From sequence record OR424384.1: a stretch of DNA of 44,563 nucleotides; one strand, written 5' to 3'. The stretch comes from Escherichia phage vB-Eco-KMB14. Below, piece after piece: positions 3,173-38,777 of the stretch (position 1 is its first letter; each line of letters begins with the position of its first letter). The notes below the pieces were generated by a model that saw only the letters and a program-made list of their open reading frames with translations, was not told the origin of the DNA and made no database searches. The translations under genes and the position numbers were made by a program.

Positions 3173-5800
3173 ATGCAAGACCTACACGCTATTCAACTTC
3201 AACTTGAAGAAGAAATGTTTAACGGAGGTATCCGTCGCTTTGAAGCGGACCAACAACGCCAGATTGCATCCGGTAATGAATCCGACACGGCATGGAATCG
3301 CCGCTTATTGTCTGAGTTAATCGCGCCAATGGCTGAAGGCATTCAGGCATACAAGGAAGAGTATGAAGGTAAAAGAGGCCGTGCACCGCGTGCATTAGCT
3401 TTCATTAACTGCGTAGAAAACGAAGTGGCAGCATATATCACGATGAAAATCGTTATGGATATGCTGAACACGGATGTAACCTTGCAGGCTATAGCCATGA
3501 ATGTAGCTGACCGCATTGAGGACCAAGTACGTTTTAGCAAGCTGGAAGGTCACGCCGCCAAATACTTTGAGAAAGTTAAGAAGTCACTTAAGGCAAGTAA
3601 GACTAAATCATATCGCCATGCGCACAACGTAGCGGTCGTGGCTGAGAAGTCAGTAGCTGACCGTGACGCTGATTTCTCTCGCTGGGAGGCGTGGCCTAAA
3701 GATACCTTGCTACAAATCGGTATGACCTTGCTAGAAATACTGGAAAATAGTGTATTCTTCAATGGTCAGCCTGTCTTTCTTCGCACCTTGCGCACTAATG
3801 GTGGCAAGCATGGCGTTTACTACTTACAGACTAGCGAACACGTGGGTGAATGGATAACTGCATTTAAAGAGCACGTAGCTCAGCTGAGTCCAGCCTATGC
3901 GCCTTGCGTTATTCCTCCTCGTCCGTGGGTTTCTCCGTTTAATGGTGGCTTCCATACCGAGAAAGTGGCGAGTCGTATTCGTCTGGTTAAAGGAAACCGC
4001 GAGCACGTCCGCAAGCTGACCAAAAAGCAAATGCCAGCGGTTTACAAGGCTGTTAACGCTTTGCAGGCGACTAAGTGGCAGGTTAATAAAGAGGTTTTGC
4101 AGGTAGTAGAGGACGTTATCCGTCTCGACCTTGGTTATGGTGTGCCTTCCTTTAAACCGCTCATCGACCGTGAGAACAAGCCAGCTAATCCAGTGCCGTT
4201 AGAGTTCCAGCACCTGCGAGGCCGTGAACTTAAAGAGATGCTAACGCCGGAACAATGGCAAGCCTTCATCAACTGGAAAGGCGAATGTACCAAGCTGTAT
4301 ACCGCTGAAACTAAGCGCGGCAGCAAGTCGGCGGCAACCGTTCGTATGGTCGGGCAGGCCCGTAAATACAGCCAGTTTGACGCAATATACTTCGTGTATG
4401 CACTGGATAGCCGCTCACGCGTTTATGCGCAATCTAGCACACTCTCACCGCAATCAAATGACTTAGGCAAGGCTTTACTACGCTTTACCGAAGGGCAGAC
4501 CATAAACAGCACTGAGGCGCTTAAGTGGTTTTTGGTGAACGGGGCAAATAACTGGGGCTGGGATAAGAAAACTTTTGACGTGCGTACCGCTAACGTGCTG
4601 GATGGCGAATTTCAAGACATGTGCCGCGACATTGCAGCCGACCCGCTGACCTTCACTCAATGGGTAAATGCTGATTCCCCTTATGGCTTCCTTGCATGGT
4701 GCTTTGAATATGCGCGTTATCTGGATGCACTGGACGAAGGAACGCAAGACCAATTCATGACGCACCTACCCGTCCATCAAGATGGTAGTTGCTCTGGTAT
4801 CCAGCACTATAGCGCGATGTTACGCGATGAGGTAGGTGCGAAAGCAGTAAACCTTAAGCCTTCTGACTCCCCTCAAGATATTTATGGCGCGGTTGCGCAG
4901 GTTGTTATCCAGAAGAATTACGCCTACATGAATGCAGACGATGCAGTGACTTTCACATCCGGAAGCGTCACACTTACAGGTGCAGAACTGCGTAGCATGG
5001 CTAGTGCGTGGGATATGATAGGAATCACTCGCGGCCTGACCAAAAAGCCCGTAATGACACTACCTTATGGCAGCACACGTCTAACCTGCCGTGAGTCAGT
5101 GATTGATTATATCGTTGATTTAGAAGAAAAAGAGGCCCAACGAGCTATTGCGGAAGGGCGTACCGCCAATCCTGTACATCCTTTTGATAATGACCGTAAG
5201 GACAGCCTGACACCTGGCGCAGCTTATAACTATATGACAGCTTTAATCTGGCCTTCTATTTCGGAAGTGGTTAAAGCTCCTATAGTGGCAATGAAAATGA
5301 TTCGTCAGCTTGCCCGTTTCGCAGCTAAAAGGAATGAAGGCTTAGAGTATACCTTGCCTACTGGCTTCATCTTGCAACAAAAGATTATGGCTACTGATAT
5401 GCTCCGCGTATCCACTTGCCTGATGGGAGAAATCAAGATGAGTCTACAGATTGAAACGGACGTAGTGGATGAAACGGCTATGATGGGCGCTGCTGCTCCT
5501 AACTTTGTGCATGGTCATGATGCCAGTCACCTTATCTTAACAGTCTGCGACCTTGTTGATAAAGGGATTACATCTATCGCAGTCATTCATGATTCTTTCG
5601 GTACTCACGCAGGCCGTACAGCCGATCTTCGTGATAGCTTAAGGGCAGAAATGGTGAAGATGTATCAAGGCCGTAATGCCCTGCAAAGCCTGTTAGATGA
5701 GCATGAAGAACGCTGGTTAGTAGACACCGGAATCCAAGTGCCAGAGCAAGGAGAGTTTGACCTTAACGAAATCTTAGTATCTGACTATTGCTTCGCATAA
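3173..5800 (+). CDS. T7-like single-subunit DNA-dependent RNA polymerase (875 aa)
   Basis: Size and motifs typical of T7 RNAP (HDSFGT motif C, PYGS region, C-terminal ...FA); RBS ctaggag. Confidence 0.95.
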
Positions 5801-9168: not shown

Positions 9169-9387
9169 ATGACTAAGGTATTAATTTATATGCGTGGACC
9201 TCATAAATGCTATGCAGTTGTAGCACCAAATGGCGTTAAGCCTTATCGTACTTCAAAAAGATTGGCATTAATAGGTGCTAGTAGTAGTGCAAGTTTCCAA
9301 ATGGAACTTTTTGGTCATTGGACTGAAAGGCAATTCCGTGAGGATTTTAAAGTCATTGGCAGTTTCATGGTGAAATATGCAGAATAA
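9169..9387 (+). CDS. Hypothetical protein (72 aa)
   Basis: RBS aaggag 7 nt upstream of the ATG. Confidence 0.6.
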   Translation: MTKVLIYMRGPHKCYAVVAPNGVKPYRTSKRLALIGASSSASFQMELFGHWTERQFREDFKVIGSFMVKYAE

Positions 9388-9553
9388 ACATAGTCTTAGA
9401 ATGTTCGATGGTCATGAAGACCTGCAAGCCAAGATTACTAACCAAGCCTTCCTGTTCGCACAGTTAACTATGGCTGAGGCCAAGAAGAATAGTCTCACTC
9501 GTGAACAGGTTATCAAGGAAAGTGAAGTGAAACGTAAGATTCGCAGTCGATAA
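9377..9553 (+). CDS. Small hypothetical protein (58 aa), not in the ORF track
   Basis: ATG overlaps the end of the preceding ORF; the ORF ends just before a terminator-like hairpin. Confidence 0.35.
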   Translation: MQNKHSLRMFDGHEDLQAKITNQAFLFAQLTMAEAKKNSLTREQVIKESEVKRKIRSR

Positions 9554-9560
9554 GTCAAGG

Positions 9561-9590
9561 GTTGTCTCACGTGTGAGACAGCCTTTTATC
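9561..9590 (+). terminator. Conserved palindrome hairpin (GTCTCACGTGTGAGAC) plus T-run; rho-independent terminator-like
   Basis: gttgtctcacgtgtgagacagcc followed by ttttatc. Confidence 0.5.
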
Positions 9591-9610
9591 ATGTTGATTG
9601 GAGGTGCATT

Positions 9611-9718
9611 ATGCCACGTGATTATGATTCTGATTGGGACTACTATGACTCAATGAATCCAAAACCAGAACGTTCAGATGATTACTACGAAACAGAGGCA
9701 ATGTATGAAAACTATTAA
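9611..9718 (+). CDS. Small acidic hypothetical protein (35 aa), not in the ORF track
   Basis: Strong RBS ggagg 6 nt upstream; translation MPRDYDSDWDYYDSMNPKPERSDDYYETEAMYENY. Confidence 0.4.
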   Translation: MPRDYDSDWDYYDSMNPKPERSDDYYETEAMYENY

Positions 9719-9923
9719 AGTCAGTAAGGTTTGCTCTTGCGGTAAAGGTTATCGCAGTCGTATTGATGGTAAGTGTGGACATTGTAGGTCTAAGAAAGAG
9801 GCTGCTTTGTTTGACAAGTACCACAATGAATTAGCCTATAACTACCCACATCTAACACCTAATTCTTTATTAGGGCTTGGTTATAGGGCTAAATACTTTG
9901 GAGCAATCTATGAAATCAATTGA
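9705..9923 (+). CDS. Small zinc-ribbon protein (72 aa; CxC...CxxC)
   Basis: ATG at 9705 overlaps the upstream ORF; translation contains CSCGKG...CGHC. The ORF-track start at 9678 is probably an extension. Confidence 0.5.
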   Translation: MKTIKVSKVCSCGKGYRSRIDGKCGHCRSKKEAALFDKYHNELAYNYPHLTPNSLLGLGYRAKYFGAIYEIN

Positions 9924-16971: not shown

Positions 16972-17971
16972 GCTTCGCAGCTTGTACAAAGACTCCGAGG
17001 TACTTGATGCAATCGAGCAAGCTACCGACGAGAAAGGTAATGTTAATTATAATGAGATGGCACGTGTATTATCGTGTCACCCTGTGGGTAAGAAGATTAC
17101 CCGCCAGTTGGCTCGATACTGGCATGGTCAATTCAAGAAGACCAAGAAGAATGGTGATTATTACCAGACCCTTCTGCAAGAAGATAAGCGTATCAAAGAA
17201 GAGCGTAAGCTCAGGACTCCTGACCGCTACGAGGATTTGGCTATTGTACCATTGCCTGACTCGCCTCATCGAAGTGTACTGGTAATCCCTGATACTCATG
17301 CACCTTATGAGCATCCAGATACCTTAGAGTTCCTTGCAGCAGTCGCGGCACGTTACCGTCCAGATACAGTGGTTCACTTAGGAGATGAGGCAGATAAACA
17401 CGCCCTCTCCTTCCATGACTCTGACCCTAATCTGGATAGTGCTGGCATGGAGCTAGAGAAGGCTCGTGTCTTCATGCACAAGTTGCACAAGATGTTCCCT
17501 GTGATGCGCCTGTGTCATTCTAATCACGGCTCTATGCACTTCCGTAAGGCAAGCGCCAAGGGTATTCCAGTGCAATATCTTCGCACCTACCGTGAAGTCT
17601 TTTTCCCAAATGGAGGTGGCGACCAGTGGGATTGGCAGCATACACATGTTCTTGAGTTGCCGAATGGTGAACAAGTGGCATTCAAGCATCAACCTGCTGG
17701 CTCTGTCCTAGCAGATGCAGCGCATGAGCGTATGAACCTTGTGTGTGGTCACTTGCACGGTAAGATGTCTGTGGAGTACGCACGTAATACACATGAACAG
17801 TATTGGGCTGTGCAAGGTGGCTGCTTAATTGATGAGTCATCCCGTGCATTTGCCTATGGGCGTGAGTCTAAATACAAGCCAGCATTAGGTTGTGTGGTTA
17901 TTCTGGAGGGTGTGCCTCATATTGTCCCGATGCAAACCAATAGCGACAACCGTTGGATTGGCAAGATTTAG
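16964..17971 (+). CDS. Calcineurin-like metallophosphoesterase (about 335 aa from a TTG start; the ATG at 17057 is an alternative)
   Basis: Motifs VIPDTHAP, HLGDEAD and GHLH. A perfect AGGAGG sits 6 nt before TTG 16964; the ORF-track start at 16832 lies deep inside the endonuclease VII gene. Confidence 0.65.
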   Translation: MGKLRSLYKDSEVLDAIEQATDEKGNVNYNEMARVLSCHPVGKKITRQLARYWHGQFKKTKKNGDYYQTLLQEDKRIKEERKLRTPDRYEDLAIVPLPDSPHRSVLVIPDTHAPYEHPDTLEFLAAVAARYRPDTVVHLGDEADKHALSFHDSDPNLDSAGMELEKARVFMHKLHKMFPVMRLCHSNHGSMHFRKASAKGIPVQYLRTYREVFFPNGGGDQWDWQHTHVLELPNGEQVAFKHQPAGSVLADAAHERMNLVCGHLHGKMSVEYARNTHEQYWAVQGGCLIDESSRAFAYGRESKYKPALGCVVILEGVPHIVPMQTNSDNRWIGKI

Positions 17972-17986
17972 TTGACACTATAGAAC
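17966..17986 (+). promoter_or_regulatory. Phage-RNAP promoter variant (ATTTAGTTGACACTATAGAAC)
   Basis: The closest copy to the canonical SP6 promoter ATTTAGGTGACACTATAGAAG. Confidence 0.5.
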
Positions 17987-18071
17987 AAAGGGCTAGGTAA
18001 GACTTTATCGGCTGGCGTATCCAAATGATATTGCACTAGCCCTTGATTGTATAGTGAATGGAGGATTCAAT

Positions 18072-18575
18072 ATGTCACACTATGAATGTAAGAAGTGTCA
18101 TAAGCGTTATGATTACTGTACTTGTGGTCAAGAGAAAACATCTTTTAAAGTTGGAGACAAGGTATTTCGTAATGAAAAAGATTCGATTCCTTGGAATCAA
18201 TACTGCAAAGAAGCTGGTATTGACCCTGATAGCCCTGTAACCATAGATGATATTGATGGCATTAACTTGTGCTTTCGTGAGGTGAGGGGTACAGGTTGGG
18301 ATTCCAAAAAATTCAAACTTGCATCTGATAAGTTAGACAACAATATGGTAACTCAGCCTAAGCACTACGAGTTCTTTGATGGCGTAGAAGCAATTACTAT
18401 CATCGCCCGTAGTATGACCGAGAAGCAATTCGCGGGGTATTGCATGGGTAATGCTTTGAAGTATCGTCTGCGTGCAGGTAAGAAGTTCAATACTGAAGAA
18501 GACCTGAAGAAAGCAGACTACTACAAAGAGTTATTCCAGAAGCATCGTCACGAATGTATTGATGAGGATATTTAA
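18072..18575 (+). CDS. Hypothetical protein with N-terminal zinc ribbon (CKKC...CTC), 167 aa
   Basis: ATG at 18072 follows RBS ggagg; the C-terminal region GYCMGNALKYRLRAGKK is a conserved phage-domain-like segment. Confidence 0.6.
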   Translation: MSHYECKKCHKRYDYCTCGQEKTSFKVGDKVFRNEKDSIPWNQYCKEAGIDPDSPVTIDDIDGINLCFREVRGTGWDSKKFKLASDKLDNNMVTQPKHYEFFDGVEAITIIARSMTEKQFAGYCMGNALKYRLRAGKKFNTEEDLKKADYYKELFQKHRHECIDEDI

Positions 18576-18576
18576 T

Positions 18577-18750
18577 ATGGAAGGTAAACTGTATAGAGGG
18601 TACTTCGGTAACTTATATAAAGTAAGCTCTCGCGGTTTTGTATTGACCTCTGATGATGAAGGTGCAATGTGGCACCTAAGTGCATATGGTTCTAACTTAG
18701 CACACTTTAAAGAGGCAATAGTCAAAGGTGTGATGAAGGAGGTGAAATGA
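18577..18750 (+). CDS. Small hypothetical protein (57 aa)
   Basis: ATG at 18577 follows gaggat. Confidence 0.45.
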   Translation: MEGKLYRGYFGNLYKVSSRGFVLTSDDEGAMWHLSAYGSNLAHFKEAIVKGVMKEVK

Positions 18751-19694
18751 ACATCTTCCAATTCCTAGGTCTTCCAGAAGACCACCGCAATCATCCATTC
18801 ATGCTGGTGAAGCATCGCGGTGAAGTTCCTGAGAAGAAACTTACTTTTCCATGTTATGCACAGGTGAAACGAGATGGAATATTCAGTGCTGTTGTGGTGC
18901 GCAATGATGGTGCTGTTGCCGTCTTTGGTCGTACTGGTAAGAAGCTCGCAAATGTTGAAGCCTTGGAAAAGACATTTAGTGTATTTCCTGTCGGGTTGTA
19001 TCTTGGTGAGTTGCAATCTATGGCTGTTGATGTTTATCTTGAAGCTCTGTCAGGAGTGGTAAACCCTAATCGTACAGAGCCACTTGACTTCATAGGCCAG
19101 CAGATTAAAGACAACCTGTATATCGACTTCTTCGATATGTTAACTATTAAGGCATTCCATGATGGATTCACTGATGTTTCTTATCTCAAACGTTACGATG
19201 CTTTACATCGTCGTATCGGCACTCATCTTAGCGGGTGCAACGCTATCCTTCCTATCACTCCTTGCCATAATGAGCGAGAAGTTGAAGCGTTTGCGCAAGA
19301 GCAAATAGATGCAGGACGTGAGGGTGCTGTATTCAAACTGGACTGCGATTATGAAGCAGGACACAAAGGTTATCGTCAGACTAAAGAAGTCCGTAAGGTA
19401 ACTTATGACCTTACTTGTATTGGCTTTGAAGAAGGTAAAGGTAAATACAAAGGTAAGGTAGCTAACCTCATTTTCAAGTGGAAAGGGGGCAAGACAATCA
19501 AAGCTATGCTCGGTAAAGGGTGGACTCATGCAGATGCAGAACAGATGTTCCACGATATTAAACATGGCGGACGGTTGAATGTCATTGGTAAAATCTTTGA
19601 AGTCAAAGGTCTTCAGGATTCAAGCAAGGGCAACATTCGTCTGCCCAAAGCGGGAGAATTAAGACATGACAAAGATGAACCAGATTTCTTTTGA
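18747..19694 (+). CDS. ATP-dependent DNA ligase (315 aa)
   Basis: KxDG adenylation motif (AQVKRDGIF); strong RBS aaggaggtg; start overlaps the upstream stop. Confidence 0.85.
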   Translation: MNIFQFLGLPEDHRNHPFMLVKHRGEVPEKKLTFPCYAQVKRDGIFSAVVVRNDGAVAVFGRTGKKLANVEALEKTFSVFPVGLYLGELQSMAVDVYLEALSGVVNPNRTEPLDFIGQQIKDNLYIDFFDMLTIKAFHDGFTDVSYLKRYDALHRRIGTHLSGCNAILPITPCHNEREVEAFAQEQIDAGREGAVFKLDCDYEAGHKGYRQTKEVRKVTYDLTCIGFEEGKGKYKGKVANLIFKWKGGKTIKAMLGKGWTHADAEQMFHDIKHGGRLNVIGKIFEVKGLQDSSKGNIRLPKAGELRHDKDEPDFF

Positions 19695-19881
19695 TAGCAT
19701 GAAGGCAACTCGTGCAGTTGAGGTAGCAGAAGCTATCTTTGAAACTTTATCATGTGGCATGGAAGTGCCATATACTTTACTTGCTGATGCAGAAGAACTT
19801 GGTCTTTCTGTAGAAGCTATCCAAGAGAAGGTTGACGAATTATATGGTACAGACGAAGAAGAAACCGACGATTTCATTTGA
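19666..19881 (+). CDS. Small acidic hypothetical protein (71 aa)
   Basis: RBS gggaga upstream of the ATG. Confidence 0.5.
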   Translation: MTKMNQISFDSMKATRAVEVAEAIFETLSCGMEVPYTLLADAEELGLSVEAIQEKVDELYGTDEEETDDFI

Positions 19882-19885
19882 AGGA

Positions 19886-20014
19886 ATGGAGATGCTTGAG
19901 ATGATTCTCAAGCCTTCTTCTCCGAAGGTGACTAAGACTCATGAAGAGTTAATCGTTGATGAAGTGAAGCGTTACATCATGGATTGTGTCAGAGCACAAC
20001 TGGTGGTCCAATGA
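19886..20014 (+). CDS. Small hypothetical protein (about 42 aa); start uncertain
   Basis: In-frame ATGs at 19886 and 19892 follow agga; its stop overlaps the next start (ATGA), suggesting translational coupling. Confidence 0.3.
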   Translation: MEMLEMILKPSSPKVTKTHEELIVDEVKRYIMDCVRAQLVVQ

Positions 20015-20472
20015 TACGTCCAGCTTCCTTCCTAGATATTCCTGAGATTATAAACCTTGGGAATAAATATGTGGAAGAGGAAGTCAAGGTAGTGGCCCAT
20101 CACTCAGCATCATGGAATGCAGAACAAAGCGCACATAACCTTTGCGCATCTCTTAGTAGAGAAGATTTATTCCTATGGGTTGCTGTAGATGAAGGGCGGA
20201 TTGTAGGGTTCCTGTGGGCTGGCTATCACGAGTTGGCCCCTTGGACACCTGTAAGGGTTGCCTCTGACATTCTCTTTTATATTATACCAGAGAAGCGAGG
20301 AACCCTACTTGGTATGCGTCTCATCAAAGCCCTAAAGCAATGGGCTAGTGATAATGAATGCTCTGAGGTTCGCCTGTCTATCGCCTCTGGTATTAATGAA
20401 GAACGTGTCGGACGTATGTATAAGCGACTTGGCTTTGAACCGTTTGGCACTGTGTACAACCTGAAGTTCTAA
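20011..20472 (+). CDS. GNAT-family N-acetyltransferase-like protein (153 aa)
   Basis: Layout and motifs (RIVGFLWAGY...PEKRGTLLGMRLIKAL) resemble the acetyl-CoA binding core of GNAT enzymes. Confidence 0.6.
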   Translation: MIRPASFLDIPEIINLGNKYVEEEVKVVAHHSASWNAEQSAHNLCASLSREDLFLWVAVDEGRIVGFLWAGYHELAPWTPVRVASDILFYIIPEKRGTLLGMRLIKALKQWASDNECSEVRLSIASGINEERVGRMYKRLGFEPFGTVYNLKF

Positions 20473-20481
20473 GGAGATAAC

Positions 20482-20691
20482 ATGGGTGTTGTAAAGAAAG
20501 CATTTAAGGCTATCGGTCTTGCTCAAGATGCACCACGTATTGAAGCCAAAGTCCCAGCACAGCAGCTTGAGCGTAAGCCTGAGACTGAAGCTGAAGATAT
20601 TCAAATTGGTGCAGGTGGTGATGATTCGACTGCATCTGCAAAAGGTAAGCGAGGCCTTGTCCGTCCGGTAGCTTCTAGCTTGAAGGTGTAA
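20482..20691 (+). CDS. Small hypothetical (possibly virion) protein, 69 aa
   Basis: RBS aaggag; lies directly upstream of the portal gene. Confidence 0.55.
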   Translation: MGVVKKAFKAIGLAQDAPRIEAKVPAQQLERKPETEAEDIQIGAGGDDSTASAKGKRGLVRPVASSLKV

Positions 20692-20692
20692 T

Positions 20693-22243
20693 ATGAAACA
20701 GAGCACAGATTTGGAGTATGGAGGTAAGCGGTCTAAGATACCTAAGCTATGGGAGAAGTTCTCCACTAAACGTAGCTCTTTCCTTGATAGGGCGAAGCAT
20801 TACTCCAAATTAACCTTGCCCTATCTGATGAATGACAAAGGTGATAACGAGACTTCGCAGAATGGATGGCAAGGTGTAGGTGCTCAGGCAACTAATCATC
20901 TAGCCAACAAGCTAGCGCAAGTACTATTCCCTGCACAGCGTTCCTTCTTCCGTGTAGACTTAACTGCACAAGGTGAGAAGGTTCTTAATCAGCGTGGCCT
21001 GAAGAAGACAGAGCTAGCTACCATCTTCGCTCAAGTGGAAACACGGGCAATGAAAGAGTTAGAGCAACGTCAATTCCGGCCTGCTGTAGTAGAAGCATTT
21101 AAGCATCTTATTGTTGCTGGCAGCTGTATGCTATACAAGCCGAGCAAAGGTGCAATCAGTGCTATCCCAATGCATCACTACGTAGTTAACCGTGATACCA
21201 ATGGCGACCTGTTAGACATTATCTTGCTACAAGAGAAAGCCTTACGTACCTTTGACCCAGCTACACGTGCTGTAGTAGAGGTTGGCCTGAAAGGTAAGAA
21301 GTGCAAGGAAGATGACAGCGTTAAGCTGTACACACATGCTAAGTATCTTGGTGATGGATTTTGGGAACTCAAGCAATCTGCTGATGATATCCCTGTGGGT
21401 AAGGTGAGTAAAATCAAATCAGAAAAGCTACCTTTCATCCCATTAACTTGGAAGCGAAGCTATGGTGAGGATTGGGGTCGCCCTCTTGCAGAGGATTACT
21501 CCGGTGATTTATTCGTTATCCAATTCTTATCTGAAGCGGTTGCCCGTGGTGCTGCGCTGATGGCAGATATCAAGTACCTGATTCGTCCGGGTGCTCAAAC
21601 TGATGTTGACCACTTTGTTAACTCTGGCACTGGTGAGGTTGTCACTGGTGTAGAAGAAGACATCCATATTGTACAGTTAGGTAAGTATGCAGACCTCACA
21701 CCTATTAGCGCGGTTCTAGAGGTATACACTCGCCGTATCGGTGTTGTCTTCATGATGGAGACAATGACACGCCGTGACGCCGAACGTGTTACTGCTGTAG
21801 AAATCCAGCGAGATGCGTTAGAGATTGAGCAGAACATGGGTGGTGTATACTCCCTCTTTGCTACTACTATGCAATCGCCAGTAGCGATGTGGGGTCTGCT
21901 GGAGGCAGGGGAGTCCTTCACTAGTGACCTAGTGGACCCTGTGATTATCACAGGTATTGAAGCTTTAGGACGCATGGCTGAGTTGGATAAACTGGCTAAC
22001 TTTGCTCAGTATATGTCACTGCCATTACAATGGCCTGAGCCTGTCCTAGCTGCTGTGAAATGGCCTGACTATATGGATTGGGTGCGTGGTCAAATCTCTG
22101 CGGAACTGCCGTTCCTTAAATCAGCTGAAGAGATGGCACAAGAACAGGAAGCACAGATGCAAGCACAGCAAGCACAGATGCTTGAAGAAGGTGTGGCTAA
22201 GGCCGTGCCGGGTGTAATTCAACAAGAACTTAAGGAGGCGTAA
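20693..22243 (+). CDS. Portal (head-tail connector) protein, 516 aa
   Basis: Size and position as for T7 gp8; first gene of the structural block. Confidence 0.85.
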   Translation: MKQSTDLEYGGKRSKIPKLWEKFSTKRSSFLDRAKHYSKLTLPYLMNDKGDNETSQNGWQGVGAQATNHLANKLAQVLFPAQRSFFRVDLTAQGEKVLNQRGLKKTELATIFAQVETRAMKELEQRQFRPAVVEAFKHLIVAGSCMLYKPSKGAISAIPMHHYVVNRDTNGDLLDIILLQEKALRTFDPATRAVVEVGLKGKKCKEDDSVKLYTHAKYLGDGFWELKQSADDIPVGKVSKIKSEKLPFIPLTWKRSYGEDWGRPLAEDYSGDLFVIQFLSEAVARGAALMADIKYLIRPGAQTDVDHFVNSGTGEVVTGVEEDIHIVQLGKYADLTPISAVLEVYTRRIGVVFMMETMTRRDAERVTAVEIQRDALEIEQNMGGVYSLFATTMQSPVAMWGLLEAGESFTSDLVDPVIITGIEALGRMAELDKLANFAQYMSLPLQWPEPVLAAVKWPDYMDWVRGQISAELPFLKSAEEMAQEQEAQMQAQQAQMLEEGVAKAVPGVIQQELKEA

Positions 22244-23163
22244 TGTCTTTCTCATTTACTGAACCGTCAACCACTCACCCTACTGCTGAAGAGGGTCCGG
22301 TAGAAACCAAGGAGGTAACAACTGATGCTGCTACTACTGATGCTACTGCTGACGCTGGCACTGCTGTACAAGATGACAATGCTGGTGCACAACCTACTGA
22401 AGACACCGGAGGAGAAGCTTCTGGACAGCCTTCAGAAAAAGGAGACAATGGCGGAGAGAATGGTGAATCTAAGCCAGATGATACCGCGACCGACACTGAG
22501 GAAGTGCAATACTTCTTCGGAGAACATGAAGTAACAATAGACATCCCACAGGATGTAACTGACAGCCTTAAAGAGAAAGGCATTGATGCCAAGCAGGTTG
22601 CCAAGGAACTCTATTCCAAAGGTGGCAAGTTTGAACTGTCAGATGCAACCAAGCAGAAATTGTATGATGCTTTTGGCAAGTTTGCGGTAGATGCTTACCT
22701 GTCAGGTCTTAAGGCTCAAAATGAAGCCTTCTTCCTGAAAGAAGCCAACGCAGCTAAAGAGCGGGAAGCAGCTAACACTCAGCGCTTCTCTGATATCTCT
22801 AAGGAAGTTGGTGGTGAAGAAGGGTGGTCACGTCTTGAGGCGTGGGCGCTTGAAACGCTATCCGATGACGAACTCACGGCATTCAATGCGGTGATGGAGT
22901 CTGGCAACCAGTACCTCCAGCAGTACGCTGTGCGTGAACTGGAGAGCCGCCGTAAGGCTGCACAGGGTGATGACAAACCAAACCTGATTGAACCCTCTGC
23001 ACCTGCTGCTGCATCTGAAGATAATGGCCCACTCTCTCGTGAGCAGTACCTGCGTGAGATGATGACTCTTAGCTCTCGCTTCGGTACAGACAAGAAAGCT
23101 GCTGCTGAGTATCAGGCTAAACTGGATGCTCGCCGTCGTGCTGGTATGGCTCGCGGTCTGTAA
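22243..23163 (+). CDS. Capsid assembly scaffolding protein (306 aa)
   Basis: Acidic, Ala/Glu-rich protein between portal and major capsid genes; RBS aaggagg. Confidence 0.8.
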   Translation: MSFSFTEPSTTHPTAEEGPVETKEVTTDAATTDATADAGTAVQDDNAGAQPTEDTGGEASGQPSEKGDNGGENGESKPDDTATDTEEVQYFFGEHEVTIDIPQDVTDSLKEKGIDAKQVAKELYSKGGKFELSDATKQKLYDAFGKFAVDAYLSGLKAQNEAFFLKEANAAKEREAANTQRFSDISKEVGGEEGWSRLEAWALETLSDDELTAFNAVMESGNQYLQQYAVRELESRRKAAQGDDKPNLIEPSAPAAASEDNGPLSREQYLREMMTLSSRFGTDKKAAAEYQAKLDARRRAGMARGL

Positions 23164-23168
23164 TCAGT

Positions 23169-23189
23169 ATTTACTGGACACTATAGAAG
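23169..23189 (+). promoter_or_regulatory. Phage-RNAP promoter upstream of the major capsid gene
   Basis: Exact consensus, followed by a 5' leader hairpin (gggaga-aatg-tctccc) and RBS aaggagg. Confidence 0.75.
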
Positions 23190-24499: not shown

Positions 24500-25237
24500 A
24501 TGCCTGTAATTAAACAAACCAGTAAAGTAGGACACATGATGGAAGATGTGGCCTTCCAGATTATTGATAGCAAGCTTGAAGCGGTCAACTTGTGTATGCG
24601 AGCTATTGGTCGTGAGGGTGTGGATTCTCTCGACTCAGGCGATCTTGATGCAGAAGATGCAAGTAAGATGATTGATATTGTATCCCAGCGCTTCCAGTAT
24701 AACAAAGGCGGTGGCTGGTGGTTCAATCGTGAACCTAACTGGCAGCTTGCACCAAACACGAACGGTGAGATTAACTTGCCTAATAACTGCCTAGCTGTAT
24801 TGCAGTGCTACGCATTGGGTGAGAAGAAAGTGCCTATGACTATGCGTGCAGGTAAGCTCTACTCTACTTGGAGTCACACCTTTGATATGCGTAAGCATGT
24901 TAATGCTAATGGTATGATTCGTCTTACCTTACTCACCTTACTACCCTACGAGCATTTACCTACAAGTGTAATGCAGGCTATTGCCTATCAAGCTGCTGTA
25001 GAGTTTATTGTGTCTAAGGATGCAGATCAGACTAAGCTAGCCACTGCGCAGCAGATAGCCACTCAGCTTCTTATGGATGTACAATCTGAGCAAATGTCAC
25101 AGAAGCGATTAAACATGCTGGTACATAACCCCACTCAGCGTCAGTTTGGTATCATGGCTGGTGGCTCTCAGAATGTGCCTGCTTACTCTCATTCACCTTA
25201 TGAGAGTTGGGCGCTCCGTCCGTGGGAGGATCGTTAA
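24500..25237 (+). CDS. Tail tubular protein A (gp11-like), 245 aa
   Basis: ATG at 24500 follows RBS aggagg; GGGWWFN resembles the T7 gp11 GWTFN region. The ORF-track start at 24485 is not ATG. Confidence 0.75.
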   Translation: MPVIKQTSKVGHMMEDVAFQIIDSKLEAVNLCMRAIGREGVDSLDSGDLDAEDASKMIDIVSQRFQYNKGGGWWFNREPNWQLAPNTNGEINLPNNCLAVLQCYALGEKKVPMTMRAGKLYSTWSHTFDMRKHVNANGMIRLTLLTLLPYEHLPTSVMQAIAYQAAVEFIVSKDADQTKLATAQQIATQLLMDVQSEQMSQKRLNMLVHNPTQRQFGIMAGGSQNVPAYSHSPYESWALRPWEDR

Positions 25238-27639
25238 TGGAAGTACAAGGTTCATTAGGTAGACAAATCCAAGGGATTAGCCAGCAGCCGCCAGCGGTAC
25301 GCTTGGATGGTCAGTGCACAGCTATGGTTAATATGATACCTGATGTAGTGAATGGTACTCAATCACGCATGGGTACAACTCATATTGCAAAGATACTTGA
25401 TGCGGGGACTGATGACATGGCTATTCATCATTATCGCAGAGGTGATGGTGATGAAGAGTATTTCTTCACGTTGAAGAAAGGACAAGTTCCTGAGATATTT
25501 GATAAGTATGGGCGCAAATGTAATGTGACTTCACAAGATGCACCTATGACCTACCTCTCTGAGGTTGTTAATCCAAGGGAAGATGTACAATTCATGACGA
25601 TAGCTGATGTTACTTTCATGCTTAATCGTAGGAAAGTAGTTAAAGCTAGTAACAGGAAGTCACCTAAAGTTGGAAACAAAGCCATTGTGTTTTGTGCGTA
25701 TGGTCAATATGGTACATCTTATTCCATTGTAATTAATGGGACCAACGCTGCTAGTTTTAAAACACCGGATGGTGGAAGTGCAGACCATGTTGAACAAATT
25801 CGAACTGAACGTATCACTTCTGAATTGTACTCTAAGTTGCAGCAATGGAGCGGTGTGAGTGACTATGAAATACAAAGAGACGGTACTAGTATATTTATCG
25901 AGAGACGGGATGGTGCTAGCTTTACAATAACAACCACCGATGGTGCAAAAGGTAAGGACTTAGTGGCTATCAAGAATAAAGTTAGCTCTACTGACCTACT
26001 CCCTTCTCGTGCGCCTGCTGGTTATAAAGTACAAGTGTGGCCTACTGGCAGCAAACCTGAGTCTCGTTACTGGCTGCAAGCTGAGCCTAAAGAGGGAAAC
26101 CTTGTGTCTTGGAAAGAAACAATAGCTGCTGATGTATTACTTGGGTTTGATAAAGGCACAATGCCTTACATTATTGAACGTACAGATATCATCAACGGCA
26201 TAGCTCAATTCAAGATAAGACAAGGTGATTGGGAAGATCGTAAAGTAGGGGATGACTTGACTAACCCTATGCCCTCTTTTATTGATGAGGAGGTACCCCA
26301 GACAATAGGTGGAATGTTCATGGTGCAGAACCGCCTATGCTTTACAGCAGGTGAAGCGGTTATTGCTTCTCGTACATCATACTTCTTCGATTTCTTTCGT
26401 TATACGGTTATCTCTGCATTGGCAACTGACCCATTTGATATTTTCTCAGATGCTAGTGAAGTCTACCAGCTAAAACATGCAGTGACCTTAGATGGCGCTA
26501 CCGTGTTGTTCTCTGATAAGTCACAATTCATACTGCCAGGCGATAAGCCTTTAGAGAAGTCAAATGCACTGCTTAAGCCTGTTACAACATTTGAAGTGAA
26601 CAATAAAGTGAAGCCAGTAGTAACTGGTGAATCGGTAATGTTTGCCACTAATGATGGTTCTTACTCTGGTGTACGAGAGTTCTATACAGACTCTTATAGT
26701 GACACTAAGAAGGCACAAGCAATCACAAGTCATGTGAATAAACTCATCGAAGGTAACATTACCAACATGGCAGCAAGCACCAATGTCAACAGGTTACTTG
26801 TCACTACCGATAAGTATCGTAACATAATCTACTGCTACGATTGGTTATGGCAAGGAACAGACCGTGTACAATCAGCATGGCATGTATGGAAGTGGCCTAT
26901 AGGTACAAAGGTGCGAGGTATGTTTTATTCTGGTGAATTACTTTACCTGCTCCTTGAGAGAGGCAATGGTGTCTATCTGGAGAAGATGGATATGGGTGAT
27001 GCATTAACCTATGGTTTAAATGATCGCATCCGAATGGATAGACAGGCAGAGTTAATCTTCCAGCATTTCAAAGCAGAAGATGAATGGGTATCTGAACCGC
27101 TCCCTTGGGTTCCTACTAATCCAGAACTTTTAGATTGCATCTTAATCGAGGGTTGGGATTCATATATTGGTGGTTCTTTCCTATTCAAATACAACCCCGG
27201 TGATAACACCTTGTCTACAACCTTTGATATGCATGATGATAGCCACGTAAAAGCGAAGGTTATTGTTGGTCAGATTTACCCTCAAGAGTTTGAACCAACA
27301 CCTGTAGTTATCAGAGATAGGCAAGACCGTGTATCCTATATTGATGTACCTGTTGTGGGATTAGTTCACCTTAATCTTGATATGTATCCTGATTTCTCCG
27401 TGGAGGTTAAGAATGTGAAGAGTGGTAAAGTACGCAGGGTGCTAGCGTCAAACCGTATAGGTGGTGCTCTCAACAATACAGTAGGTTATGTTGAACCAAG
27501 AGAGGGTGTCTTCAGATTCCCACTGAGAGCTAAGAGTACGGATGCTGTTTATCGTATTATTGTAGAATCACCTCACACATTCCAGCTCCGCGATATTGAG
27601 TGGGAAGGGAGCTACAATCCAACCAAAAGGAGGGTCTAA
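25237..27639 (+). CDS. Tail tubular protein B (gp12-like), 800 aa
   Basis: Size and position; ATG at 25237 follows RBS ggagga and overlaps the upstream stop. Confidence 0.8.
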   Translation: MEVQGSLGRQIQGISQQPPAVRLDGQCTAMVNMIPDVVNGTQSRMGTTHIAKILDAGTDDMAIHHYRRGDGDEEYFFTLKKGQVPEIFDKYGRKCNVTSQDAPMTYLSEVVNPREDVQFMTIADVTFMLNRRKVVKASNRKSPKVGNKAIVFCAYGQYGTSYSIVINGTNAASFKTPDGGSADHVEQIRTERITSELYSKLQQWSGVSDYEIQRDGTSIFIERRDGASFTITTTDGAKGKDLVAIKNKVSSTDLLPSRAPAGYKVQVWPTGSKPESRYWLQAEPKEGNLVSWKETIAADVLLGFDKGTMPYIIERTDIINGIAQFKIRQGDWEDRKVGDDLTNPMPSFIDEEVPQTIGGMFMVQNRLCFTAGEAVIASRTSYFFDFFRYTVISALATDPFDIFSDASEVYQLKHAVTLDGATVLFSDKSQFILPGDKPLEKSNALLKPVTTFEVNNKVKPVVTGESVMFATNDGSYSGVREFYTDSYSDTKKAQAITSHVNKLIEGNITNMAASTNVNRLLVTTDKYRNIIYCYDWLWQGTDRVQSAWHVWKWPIGTKVRGMFYSGELLYLLLERGNGVYLEKMDMGDALTYGLNDRIRMDRQAELIFQHFKAEDEWVSEPLPWVPTNPELLDCILIEGWDSYIGGSFLFKYNPGDNTLSTTFDMHDDSHVKAKVIVGQIYPQEFEPTPVVIRDRQDRVSYIDVPVVGLVHLNLDMYPDFSVEVKNVKSGKVRRVLASNRIGGALNNTVGYVEPREGVFRFPLRAKSTDAVYRIIVESPHTFQLRDIEWEGSYNPTKRRV

Positions 27640-28361
27640 TGGCTATAGGTTCTGCCGTTATGGCTGGTATGTCTTCTATTGGTAGTATGTTTACAGGCAG
27701 CGGTGCAGCAGCCGCTGCTGGAGGTGCTGCCGCAGGTGGCGGAGGCTTGCTAGGTTCTCTAGGTGGCTTCCTAAGCGGCTCTACTGCTGGCTTCTCTAAT
27801 GCTGGGCTTCTTGGTGCTGGCCTTCAAGGTTTAGGCTTGATTGGTGATCTCTTTGGTGGAAGTGATGAAGCCAAGGCAATGAAGAAAGCACAAGAAGAAC
27901 AGTGGCGGCAGCAACTTATTGCTACACAAGAAGCATACAAAACAGTAGCAGATGCAGAGCGTTCTGCTGCTAAACAATATCATGCAGATGCAATAAGCAA
28001 TCAGGCTTCACTACTACAGCAGCGAGCACAGGTTGCATTACTAGCAGGTGCTACTGGTACTGGTGGTAACTCTGTATCTTCTATGCTGAATGACTTAGCA
28101 GCAGAGGGCGGGAGGAACCAGAGTACAATTATTGATAACTATGAGAATCAGAAGATTAACTTCACCAATCAGCTTAAGTCTATCCAGCGAGGTGGACAGA
28201 TGCAGATGCGTGAGTTTAAGAAGCCTTCTGCCGTGAGCACCTTGGTGCAAGGTATACCGAGTCTGGCATCTGCCTATGTAACAGGTAGTAAGTCCGGCAT
28301 GGCTTTAGGTAAAGCTTTAACTGATTCTCGTACATATTCATCTGGAACAAGAGGTATTTAA
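27639..28361 (+). CDS. Internal virion protein A (Gly/Ala-rich N-terminus), 240 aa
   Basis: ATG at 27639 follows RBS ggaggg. Its 5' end (27642-27711) is the source of the ectopic insert at 12976-13062. Confidence 0.7.
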   Translation: MAIGSAVMAGMSSIGSMFTGSGAAAAAGGAAAGGGGLLGSLGGFLSGSTAGFSNAGLLGAGLQGLGLIGDLFGGSDEAKAMKKAQEEQWRQQLIATQEAYKTVADAERSAAKQYHADAISNQASLLQQRAQVALLAGATGTGGNSVSSMLNDLAAEGGRNQSTIIDNYENQKINFTNQLKSIQRGGQMQMREFKKPSAVSTLVQGIPSLASAYVTGSKSGMALGKALTDSRTYSSGTRGI

Positions 28362-38483: not shown

Positions 38484-38777
38484 ATGGCTAAATATGGTAC
38501 TACAGGTTCTGTTACTGGTCAGGCTTTTCGAGTAAAAGCAGTACAAACTATTGCAACGGCAATCCCTATGCCTGTTGTTAAAGAAGCAGACCTTAAGAGT
38601 AAAGATCACCCTATCAACATCAAACACCTGTCAGGTAAGCAGAAAGGTGCAATGGTTGCTCTTGAGAAAGATGACACAACCATGCATATTGCTGTTGCAC
38701 GTGGCAGTGAACCAACAGACCCATGGGATGTAACTGGTATGGAAGGGGCAGCTGTCACTCCAGCAGGTGGAGAATAA
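38484..38777 (+). CDS. Small hypothetical protein, paralog 2 (97 aa)
   Basis: RBS aaggagg; shared block HLSGKQKGAMVALEKDD...IAVA. Confidence 0.65.
   Translation: MAKYGTTGSVTGQAFRVKAVQTIATAIPMPVVKEADLKSKDHPINIKHLSGKQKGAMVALEKDDTTMHIAVARGSEPTDPWDVTGMEGAAVTPAGGE

Follow-up and report, generated by a model that had tools for sequence, protein, structure and literature searches.

The window analysed here is the whole 44,563-nucleotide (nt) sequence of Escherichia phage vB-Eco-KMB14 (OR424384.1), a K1-5/K1E-like Vectrevirus (Autographiviridae, Molineuxvirinae), and upstream of its portal gene it encodes a GNAT-family N-acetyltransferase of 153 amino acids (aa). I propose, tentatively and at somewhat less than an even chance, that this is a protein acetyltransferase, expressed late and absent from the virion, that acts in particle morphogenesis. 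Its gene would be transcribed by the phage RNA polymerase on the portal and scaffold message, with translation coupled to a small upstream open reading frame (ORF), and the enzyme would be the counterpart of the GNAT-fold internal virion protein A (IVP-A) of other podoviruses (T7 gp13, P22 gp14, SIO1 gp26.2). It would act during assembly of the portal, the core and the ejection-protein complex, where it would make particles infectious, most likely by acetylating, or at least binding, a small virion or ejection protein. I infer its catalytic activity, its protein substrate, its morphogenetic role and its absence from the virion from the evidence that follows (Table 1).

The original prediction, made from the sequence alone, described a 153-aa GNAT-like protein, and Pfam, PHROG, AlphaFold and Foldseek all agree with it. 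In the Pfam hidden Markov model (HMM) search that it had proposed, three models scored above their thresholds: Acetyltransf_1 (PF00583; E=1.2e-9, 38.9 bits, cut-off 20.7), Acetyltransf_7 (36.3 bits, cut-off 27) and Acetyltransf_10 (25.6, cut-off 23.6). The PHROG family phrog_1249, annotated 'acetyltransferase', matched with E=1e-53. The structure prediction that it had also proposed gave a GNAT fold: AlphaFold2, given 32 homologues, produced a model with a predicted local distance difference test (pLDDT) score of 88.3 and a predicted template-modelling (pTM) score of 0.84, and its strands (E) and helices (H), namely E2-4, H7-25, H37-47, E53-60, E63-76, E79-91, H99-114, E119-123, H130-139, E143-145 and E148-152, follow the canonical GNAT order b1-a1-a2-b2-b3-b4-a3-b5-a4-b6/7. 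A Foldseek search with this model returned 641 matches in the PDB at E<=0.001, and all 50 of those listed are GNATs; template-modelling (TM) scores to acetyl-CoA-bound PAT, BAR and ArsN structures are 0.73-0.78 at 15-24% identity, which is the generic GNAT level.

The residues that matter for acetyl-CoA binding point the same way. In motif A (pyrophosphate loop P-E-x-R-G-x-x-x-G), R96 and G97 are invariant across 32 SP6-like homologues, and R96 is invariant in 48 broader family members as well; SSAT2 and 4j3g have R-G-x-G-x-G at the aligned position. From the canonical Q/R-x-x-G-x-G/A pattern, which follows strand b4, the Arg and the last Gly are kept; in place of the central Gly the window protein has Leu, and the family is variable at this point. 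In and around motif B, I128, L140 and G146 are invariant in the alignment of SP6-like homologues, and N129, G141 and F142 are at least 90% conserved. Y137 aligns with the catalytic-acid tyrosine of SSAT; several homologues have Phe instead. Judged by these motifs, the protein is probably a catalytically active, acetyl-CoA-dependent N-acetyltransferase. Its NCBIfam scores (ArsN1a 27.5, cut-off 170; AAC(6') group E 24.2, cut-off 140; RimI 22.6, cut-off 86.4; MshD 20.3, cut-off 163) are four- to eight-fold under the cut-offs and, on that measure, place it outside the named families ArsN1/PAT, AAC(6'), RimI and MshD.

The ORF is real and under strong purifying selection, not a chance ORF. Compared with 15 relatives, it shows a ratio of nonsynonymous to synonymous substitution rates (dN/dS) of 0.05-0.20, synonymous sites being nearly saturated, and the length of 153 codons is kept in all but one of them (14/15). 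Even relatives with only 61% protein identity still have the overlap of its start with the stop of the upstream ORF, in the form ATGA or TAATG, and the junction of its own stop with the 69-aa ORF that follows, including the ribosome-binding site of the latter, is likewise conserved. At the DNA level 91 phage records match window positions 19600-20800, and over this interval Escherichia phage ULINTec6 is 99.9% identical. Public phage records hold proteins 100% identical to the window GNAT, with K1E gp27 at 96% and SP6 gp28 at 76%; the gene and its GNAT label are already public, as K1-5 gp27 (YP_654128), K1E gp27 and SP6 gp28 'acetyltransferase'. The K1-5 reference copy differs in being 175 aa long, a 66-bp near-tandem duplication adding 22 aa to its alpha1-alpha2 loop. 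This duplication lies at 4485-4550 of the K1-5 locus (NC_008152, L001), equivalent to about window position 20084, with a 1-nt difference, and its insert reads HHSASWNAEQSA-ITFVHLLIET; the window and most relatives are without it. Possible explanations are an insertion that the loop tolerates and a mistake in the old reference sequence.

Homologues of at least 52% identity sit mostly on phage-genome-sized contigs of ~44 kb, and no relative turned up when 185,579 bacterial and archaeal genomes were scanned for the motif. Viral contigs were searched with a 32-sequence alignment, and an HMM search of 1.84 billion representative proteins returned 1,246 at E<=1e-10, the best 150 listed being mostly ~150 aa long. 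Members sampled from the family share the features M-I-R-x-A...D, VGF-W-[AG] and P-W-[ST], followed by A-x-D...Y-V-x-P-E-x-R-G and S-G-I...R-T...Y-E-R-L-G. The phages that carry the gene infect Escherichia, Salmonella, Klebsiella, Proteus, Erwinia, Vibrio, Pseudomonas and marine bacteria.

The gene had been predicted to lie between the replication and structural modules, just before the portal gene and translationally coupled to the small ORF in front of it. The coupling holds, the ATG (20011-20013) overlapping the TGA (20012-20014) of the upstream ORF as ATGA at 20011-20014. The gene does follow the DNA ligase gene and precede the portal gene, but not directly, as the 69-aa ORF intervenes, and it is a conserved core gene rather than an accessory one. 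Between the GNAT stop and the ATG of the 69-aa ORF lies AAGGAGATAAC; by its PHROG match this next product is of the T7 gp6.7/7.3-like small virion protein type. SP6-type promoter cores number 21 in the window against 4.6 expected by chance, and a scan found none between 17983 and 23172, which suggests that a single transcription unit comprises the GNAT gene and those for the nucleotide kinase, the ligase, the portal and the scaffold. Sigma-70 promoter-like sites around the gene occur at chance level only in a scan for them.

This arrangement is fixed among close relatives and recurs outside the subfamily. In 29 SP6-like IMG/VR loci (61-100% identity) the order ligase-orf25-orf26-GNAT-orf28-portal-scaffold is invariant, and the ligase-to-scaffold block is also found in Vibrio phage phi-A318 (Colwellvirinae) and coliphage ECBP5 (Gajwadongvirus), where the PHROG of the 69-aa ORF again follows the GNAT. 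In 47 distant loci from viral metagenomes (21-39% identity) the other window genes tested had no detectable homologue. The distant family members fall into at least five podovirus architectures (Table 1, last rows), and in every distant locus with annotatable neighbours the GNAT gene is inside the virion-structural module; several further distant loci have neighbours without annotation. The family phrog_1249 is tied to virion and ejection-protein genes in podoviruses both with and without their own RNA polymerase.

Hardies et al. (2016; PMC4819975) described the IVP-A slot as holding a non-structural gene of the acetyltransferase family that is equivalent to T7 IVP-A; they report that T7 IVP-A (gp13) matches acetyltransferases by HHpred, is needed for morphogenesis and is not retained in virions. 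Roseobacter phage SIO1 gp26.2, which occupies the IVP-A slot, the place of gp13 in T7, lies between gp27 (tail B) and gp26.1/gp26 and belongs to phrog_1249 (E=2e-36). In a tblastn search of 2.3 Gb it aligns with the window GNAT at 27% identity over 97% coverage (E=3e-8). The fold extends to T7 gp13 itself: a homologue 97% identical to it was predicted at pLDDT 93.6 (model mf086279ccf65), and all 50 PDB structural matches listed for that model are GNATs, RimI being the best (E=2.5e-5). P22 gp14 is annotated 'head morphogenesis' in RefSeq. T7 gp13 and P22 gp14, which hold the equivalent slot and have been characterised genetically, are assembly factors.

The window protein is itself not in the IVP-A slot, tubular tail B being followed directly by a gp14-like protein. 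The slot is also empty in LUZ19, ECBP5, phi-A318 and fHe-Kpn01, all of which, like the window, have a pre-portal GNAT-like gene, so that the two positions appear to be used in a complementary way.

I rank a morphogenetic role first because phrog_1249 is associated with virion and ejection genes and the proteins of the equivalent slot are assembly factors, and because a core gene coupled to and apparently co-transcribed with head-assembly genes, from a family found in structural modules, argues for such a role before others. The proposal draws on core-gene synteny, low dN/dS, translational coupling, the promoter-free interval 17983-23172 and the match to SIO1 gp26.2, together with the GNAT fold of gp13, the complementary slot use, the kept motifs A and B and the fact that gp38 of fHe-Kpn01, a pre-portal GNAT-like protein, was not marked as detected in virions by liquid chromatography-tandem mass spectrometry, although its neighbours were detected (PMC7291057).

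Several points weigh against this proposal. The association with a gene neighbourhood is suggestive, not proof, and the complementary-distribution argument concerns a handful of genomes. Direct homology to T7 gp13 could not be demonstrated: profile comparisons, one of them with a 25-sequence gp13 alignment, yielded no significant match, hhalign of the two family profiles giving 17% probability over 18 N-terminal columns, and the profile comparison with P22 gp14 gave nothing significant; in a Pfam scan at E<=1, PF11090, the gp13 family, is not among the four GNAT-type families that the window protein matches. With no demonstrable sequence homology to gp13, the link is one of fold, slot and intermediates such as SIO1 gp26.2. 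T7 gp13 is without the R-G-x-x-x-G acetyl-CoA loop and may be a pseudo-enzyme with a non-catalytic role, whereas the window GNAT looks like an enzyme. Literature searches gave only secondary mentions of primary data on T7 gp13, and found neither functional nor virion-proteomic data on the gene in K1-5, K1E or SP6. Finally, the only functional data on pre-portal GNAT-like proteins, those on Rac and gp38, point to the host and not to assembly.

Rac (gp28 of the phiKMV-like phage LUZ19) is encoded in the order small ORF - GNAT - 91-aa virion protein - portal - scaffold, and in the window, as in LUZ19, the GNAT gene comes directly before the genes for a small virion protein and the portal. Rac matches a Pfam GNAT model. 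Expressed alone, it is toxic to P. aeruginosa, increases lysine acetylation and causes cleavage of the alpha subunit of host RNA polymerase (at its C-terminal domain, alpha-CTD), and mutation of its acetyl-CoA pocket abolishes the effect (PMC7552054). In the same slot gp38 (146 aa) of fHe-Kpn01, a KP34-like Klebsiella phage, resembles GNATs in the published HHpred search and has a toxic effect in E. coli (PMC7291057). The window enzyme might, by analogy, acetylate host proteins late in the middle phase, host functions being shut down or redirected after the phage RNA polymerase has taken over. This is a serious rival because a Rac-type role is the sole activity of a pre-portal GNAT that has been shown experimentally, and I consider it unlikely but well worth holding. 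It gains from two sequence links, phrog_1249 being the only secondary PHROG match of Rac (E=4.9e-4) and the window family profile aligning with Rac by hhalign at E=2.8e-4 over 105 columns. The specific homology is nonetheless weak: Rac belongs to phrog_3986 and gp38 to phrog_5167, pairwise similarity is insignificant, and the direct comparisons with Rac (BLASTP E=18; hhalign probabilities of 0.8-41%) are too weak for orthology to be claimed. An IMG/VR search for Rac relatives returned only matches of at least 90% identity. Moreover, alpha cleavage is reported to be genus-specific, the related phage LKA1 having a GNAT in the same place and showing none (PMC7552054), and toxicity on over-expression is a non-specific property. 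A takeover role also leaves unexplained the phrog_1249 GNATs beside ejection proteins in phages without their own RNA polymerase. The earlier suggestion of a host-modifying enzyme has its precedent in Rac and gp38, same slot and toxic, and keeps that smaller chance; it is not the reading favoured here.

Other uses of the fold fare less well. Were the GNAT fold retained as a non-catalytic chaperone that binds a virion protein and transfers no acetyl group, the gp13 family, with its fold but no acetyl-CoA loop, would be the precedent, and the replaced central Gly of motif A and the Phe at the Tyr137 position of several members would fit; but the invariance of R96 and G97, the high conservation of G141 and N129/F142 and the Pfam GNAT models passed are typical of active enzymes, and I find this improbable. 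An acetyltransferase of small molecules (a polyamine, an amino-acid analogue or an antibiotic) that alters host metabolism is suggested by the best PDB matches, which include phosphinothricin, arsinothricin and methionine-sulfoximine acetyltransferases, the polyamine acetyltransferases SSAT and DpA, and AAC(6'). However, these are matches at 15-24% identity with NCBIfam scores far under the cut-offs, N-terminal protein acetyltransferases (Naa60, Ard1) match equally well, and the genomic context is virion assembly, not metabolism, so that I hold this quite improbable. The original prediction had thought of a counter-defence enzyme, which would acetylate a host immune protein, as AcrVA5 does, or an immune signalling molecule. 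Its precedent is a general one, the prophage GNAT AcrVA5 that inactivates Cas12a, as cited in PMC7552054. The window protein matched none of the PADLOC families, and no anti-CRISPR or toxin GNAT occurs among its 22 PDB sequence matches (E<=1) or the 50 Foldseek matches listed. Anti-defence genes tend to be accessory, variable and located in early regions, and this is a syntenic, slowly evolving core gene across phages of many hosts. The counter-defence idea was not borne out and I regard it as very improbable; neither it nor the small-molecule reading has specific support.

Table 1. Features of the window discussed in the text, followed by the gene orders around distant family members (L numbers identify the loci compared)
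Feature	Position	Strand	Remarks
Phage RNA polymerase promoter-like site TAGTTGACACTATAG	17969..17983	+	SP6-type promoter core match; nearest one 5' of GNAT
Nucleotide kinase homologue	18054-18575	+
ATP-dependent DNA ligase	18747-19694		5' of GNAT
Small ORF, 71 aa	19666..19881	+	K1-5 gene 25 homologue; phrog_5860; syntenic in all SP6-like loci
Small ORF, 42 aa from ATG 19886	19886..20014	+	phrog_6507; TGA overlaps GNAT start
GNAT-family N-acetyltransferase, 153 aa	20011..20472	+	154 codons including stop; K1-5 gp27/K1E gp27/SP6 gp28; phrog_1249
Motif A / pyrophosphate-binding loop P93-E-K-R96-G97-T-L-L-G101	20287..20313	+
Motif B N129-E-E-R-V-G-R-M-Y137-K-R-L-G141-F142	20395..20436	+
69-aa ORF	20482..20691	+	K1-5 gene 28; phrog_9033/phrog_1320 'host range and adsorption protein'; strong AAGGAG ribosome-binding site
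Portal (head-tail connector), 516 aa	20693..22243	+	Pfam PF12236 Head-tail_con, E=7.7e-88
Scaffolding protein, 306 aa	22243..23163	+	counterpart of K1-5 'head scaffolding protein'
Promoter-like site TACTGGACACTATAG	23172..23186	+	SP6-type core; next one 3' of GNAT, preceding the major capsid gene
Tubular tail B	25207-27639
gp14-like internal virion protein	27600..28361	+	directly after tubular tail B; phrog_805, phrog_457 matches
Distant loci: tubular tail B - GNAT - internal virion proteins			L032, L050, L055, L056, L059; 27-34% identity
Distant loci: T7-type portal - 264-aa protein - GNAT - ... - tail tube A/B			L033-L035, L052, L054, L061, L063
Distant loci: 'DNA ejection protein' - GNAT			L040-L049, L051, L053
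Distant loci: head-closure Hc3 - 142 aa - GNAT - ejection protein (= P22 gene-14 place)			L067, L072-L078
Distant loci: portal - GNAT			L037, L038

Some features of the neighbouring genes deserve mention in their own right. The small ORF that overlaps the GNAT start has an alternative start at ATG 19844, giving 56 aa, according to the annotation of K1-5 gene 26. Within it, at 19894-19913 (+), is a weak terminator-like hairpin, GCTTGAGA-TGAT-TCTCAAGC, followed by a T-rich run; it could attenuate transcription, pause ribosomes before the coupled start or be a chance structure, and I judge it not functional. The nucleotide kinase homologue carries a C-x-x-C...C-x-C cluster, YECKKCHKRYDYCTC, in its N-terminal ~25 residues, apparently N-terminal to the part that matches the shorter nucleotide-kinase PHROG profiles, and this may be a small zinc-binding extension. 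The mechanical ORF of the gp14-like protein begins at GTG 27600, with a 40-nt overlap with tubular tail B, and its PHROG match starts only at residue 67. K1E gp34 is given as 240 aa in a review, and the true start of the window ORF probably lies 3' of 27600. A 97-aa ORF at 38484-38777 (+) is by position perhaps the counterpart of a 95-aa protein of the SP6-like phage UAB_Phi78, which the paper on that phage labels 'putative acetyl-CoA acetyltransferase' after K1E gp42; the label looks like an annotation error because 95 aa is far too small for a thiolase.

Two observations concern T7. Its gene 13 (9308-9724 of the T7 locus, NC_001604, L079) is described in Pfam as 'probable scaffold protein'. 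In the same genome gp7 (133 aa, 'host range'; 1131-1532 of L079) sits in the pre-portal slot, in the order 6.7-7-7.3-7.7-portal. As a hidden GNAT it was a candidate with a 45-residue resemblance to motifs A-B (29% identity), and with hhalign E values of 0.06-0.16, an 11-sequence profile included, it is unproven.

Phages of the K1-5/K1E/SP6 type serve, in natural and engineered form, as agents against K1-capsulated E. coli, Salmonella and Klebsiella. In such work it matters that the GNAT is outside every antibiotic-resistance acetyltransferase family, its NCBIfam scores being far under the cut-offs, and that, being a conserved part of the core, it does not count among the dispensable accessory genes that could safely be swapped for a payload. 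What GNAT-fold 'IVP-A' proteins do in podovirus assembly is a long-standing question, T7 gp13 and P22 gp14 both being genetically required. With its intact acetyl-CoA motifs the present family lends itself to studying whether assembly of the core or ejectosome involves acetylation, and the family could also show whether a Rac-type host effect and an assembly role are connected. What is added here is the placing of this gene in the podoviral IVP-A-type GNAT family and the complementary use of the two slots, part of which had already been published for other phages.

A wider reading, which I consider rather unlikely, goes further. In it, T7 gp13 and P22 gp14 would have a displaced, still catalytic orthologue in the pre-portal GNAT that SP6-, phiKMV- and KP34-like phages carry. 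For an infectious podovirus core to be built, a small virion or ejection protein would have to be acetylated, as an ancestral and required step, and what Rac and gp38 do to the host (RNA polymerase alpha cleavage, toxicity) would be a side activity or a secondary specialisation within one enzyme lineage.

Set beside known systems, the window gene is closest to K1-5 gp27, K1E gp27 and SP6 gp28 of the Molineuxvirinae, which are the same gene in the same position with the same neighbours. The IVP-A-slot family of SIO1 gp26.2, VpV262 and phiRIO-1-like phages shares with it phrog_1249, a size of ~150 aa and a place in the structural block, and the GNATs of VpV262 and CRP-4 are among its best viral structural matches (TM 0.75-0.86); the difference is that the window GNAT is 5' of the portal gene and the junction of tail B with IVP-B in the window is empty. 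T7 gp13 (PF11090) and P22 gp14 (PF11039) are of similar size and also encoded in the virion module, but in a different genomic slot; an N-terminal M-I-R-P-x-x-x-x-D motif is common to the window GNAT and gp13. Rac and gp38, from other subfamilies of the Autographiviridae, occupy the same pre-portal slot as the window GNAT.

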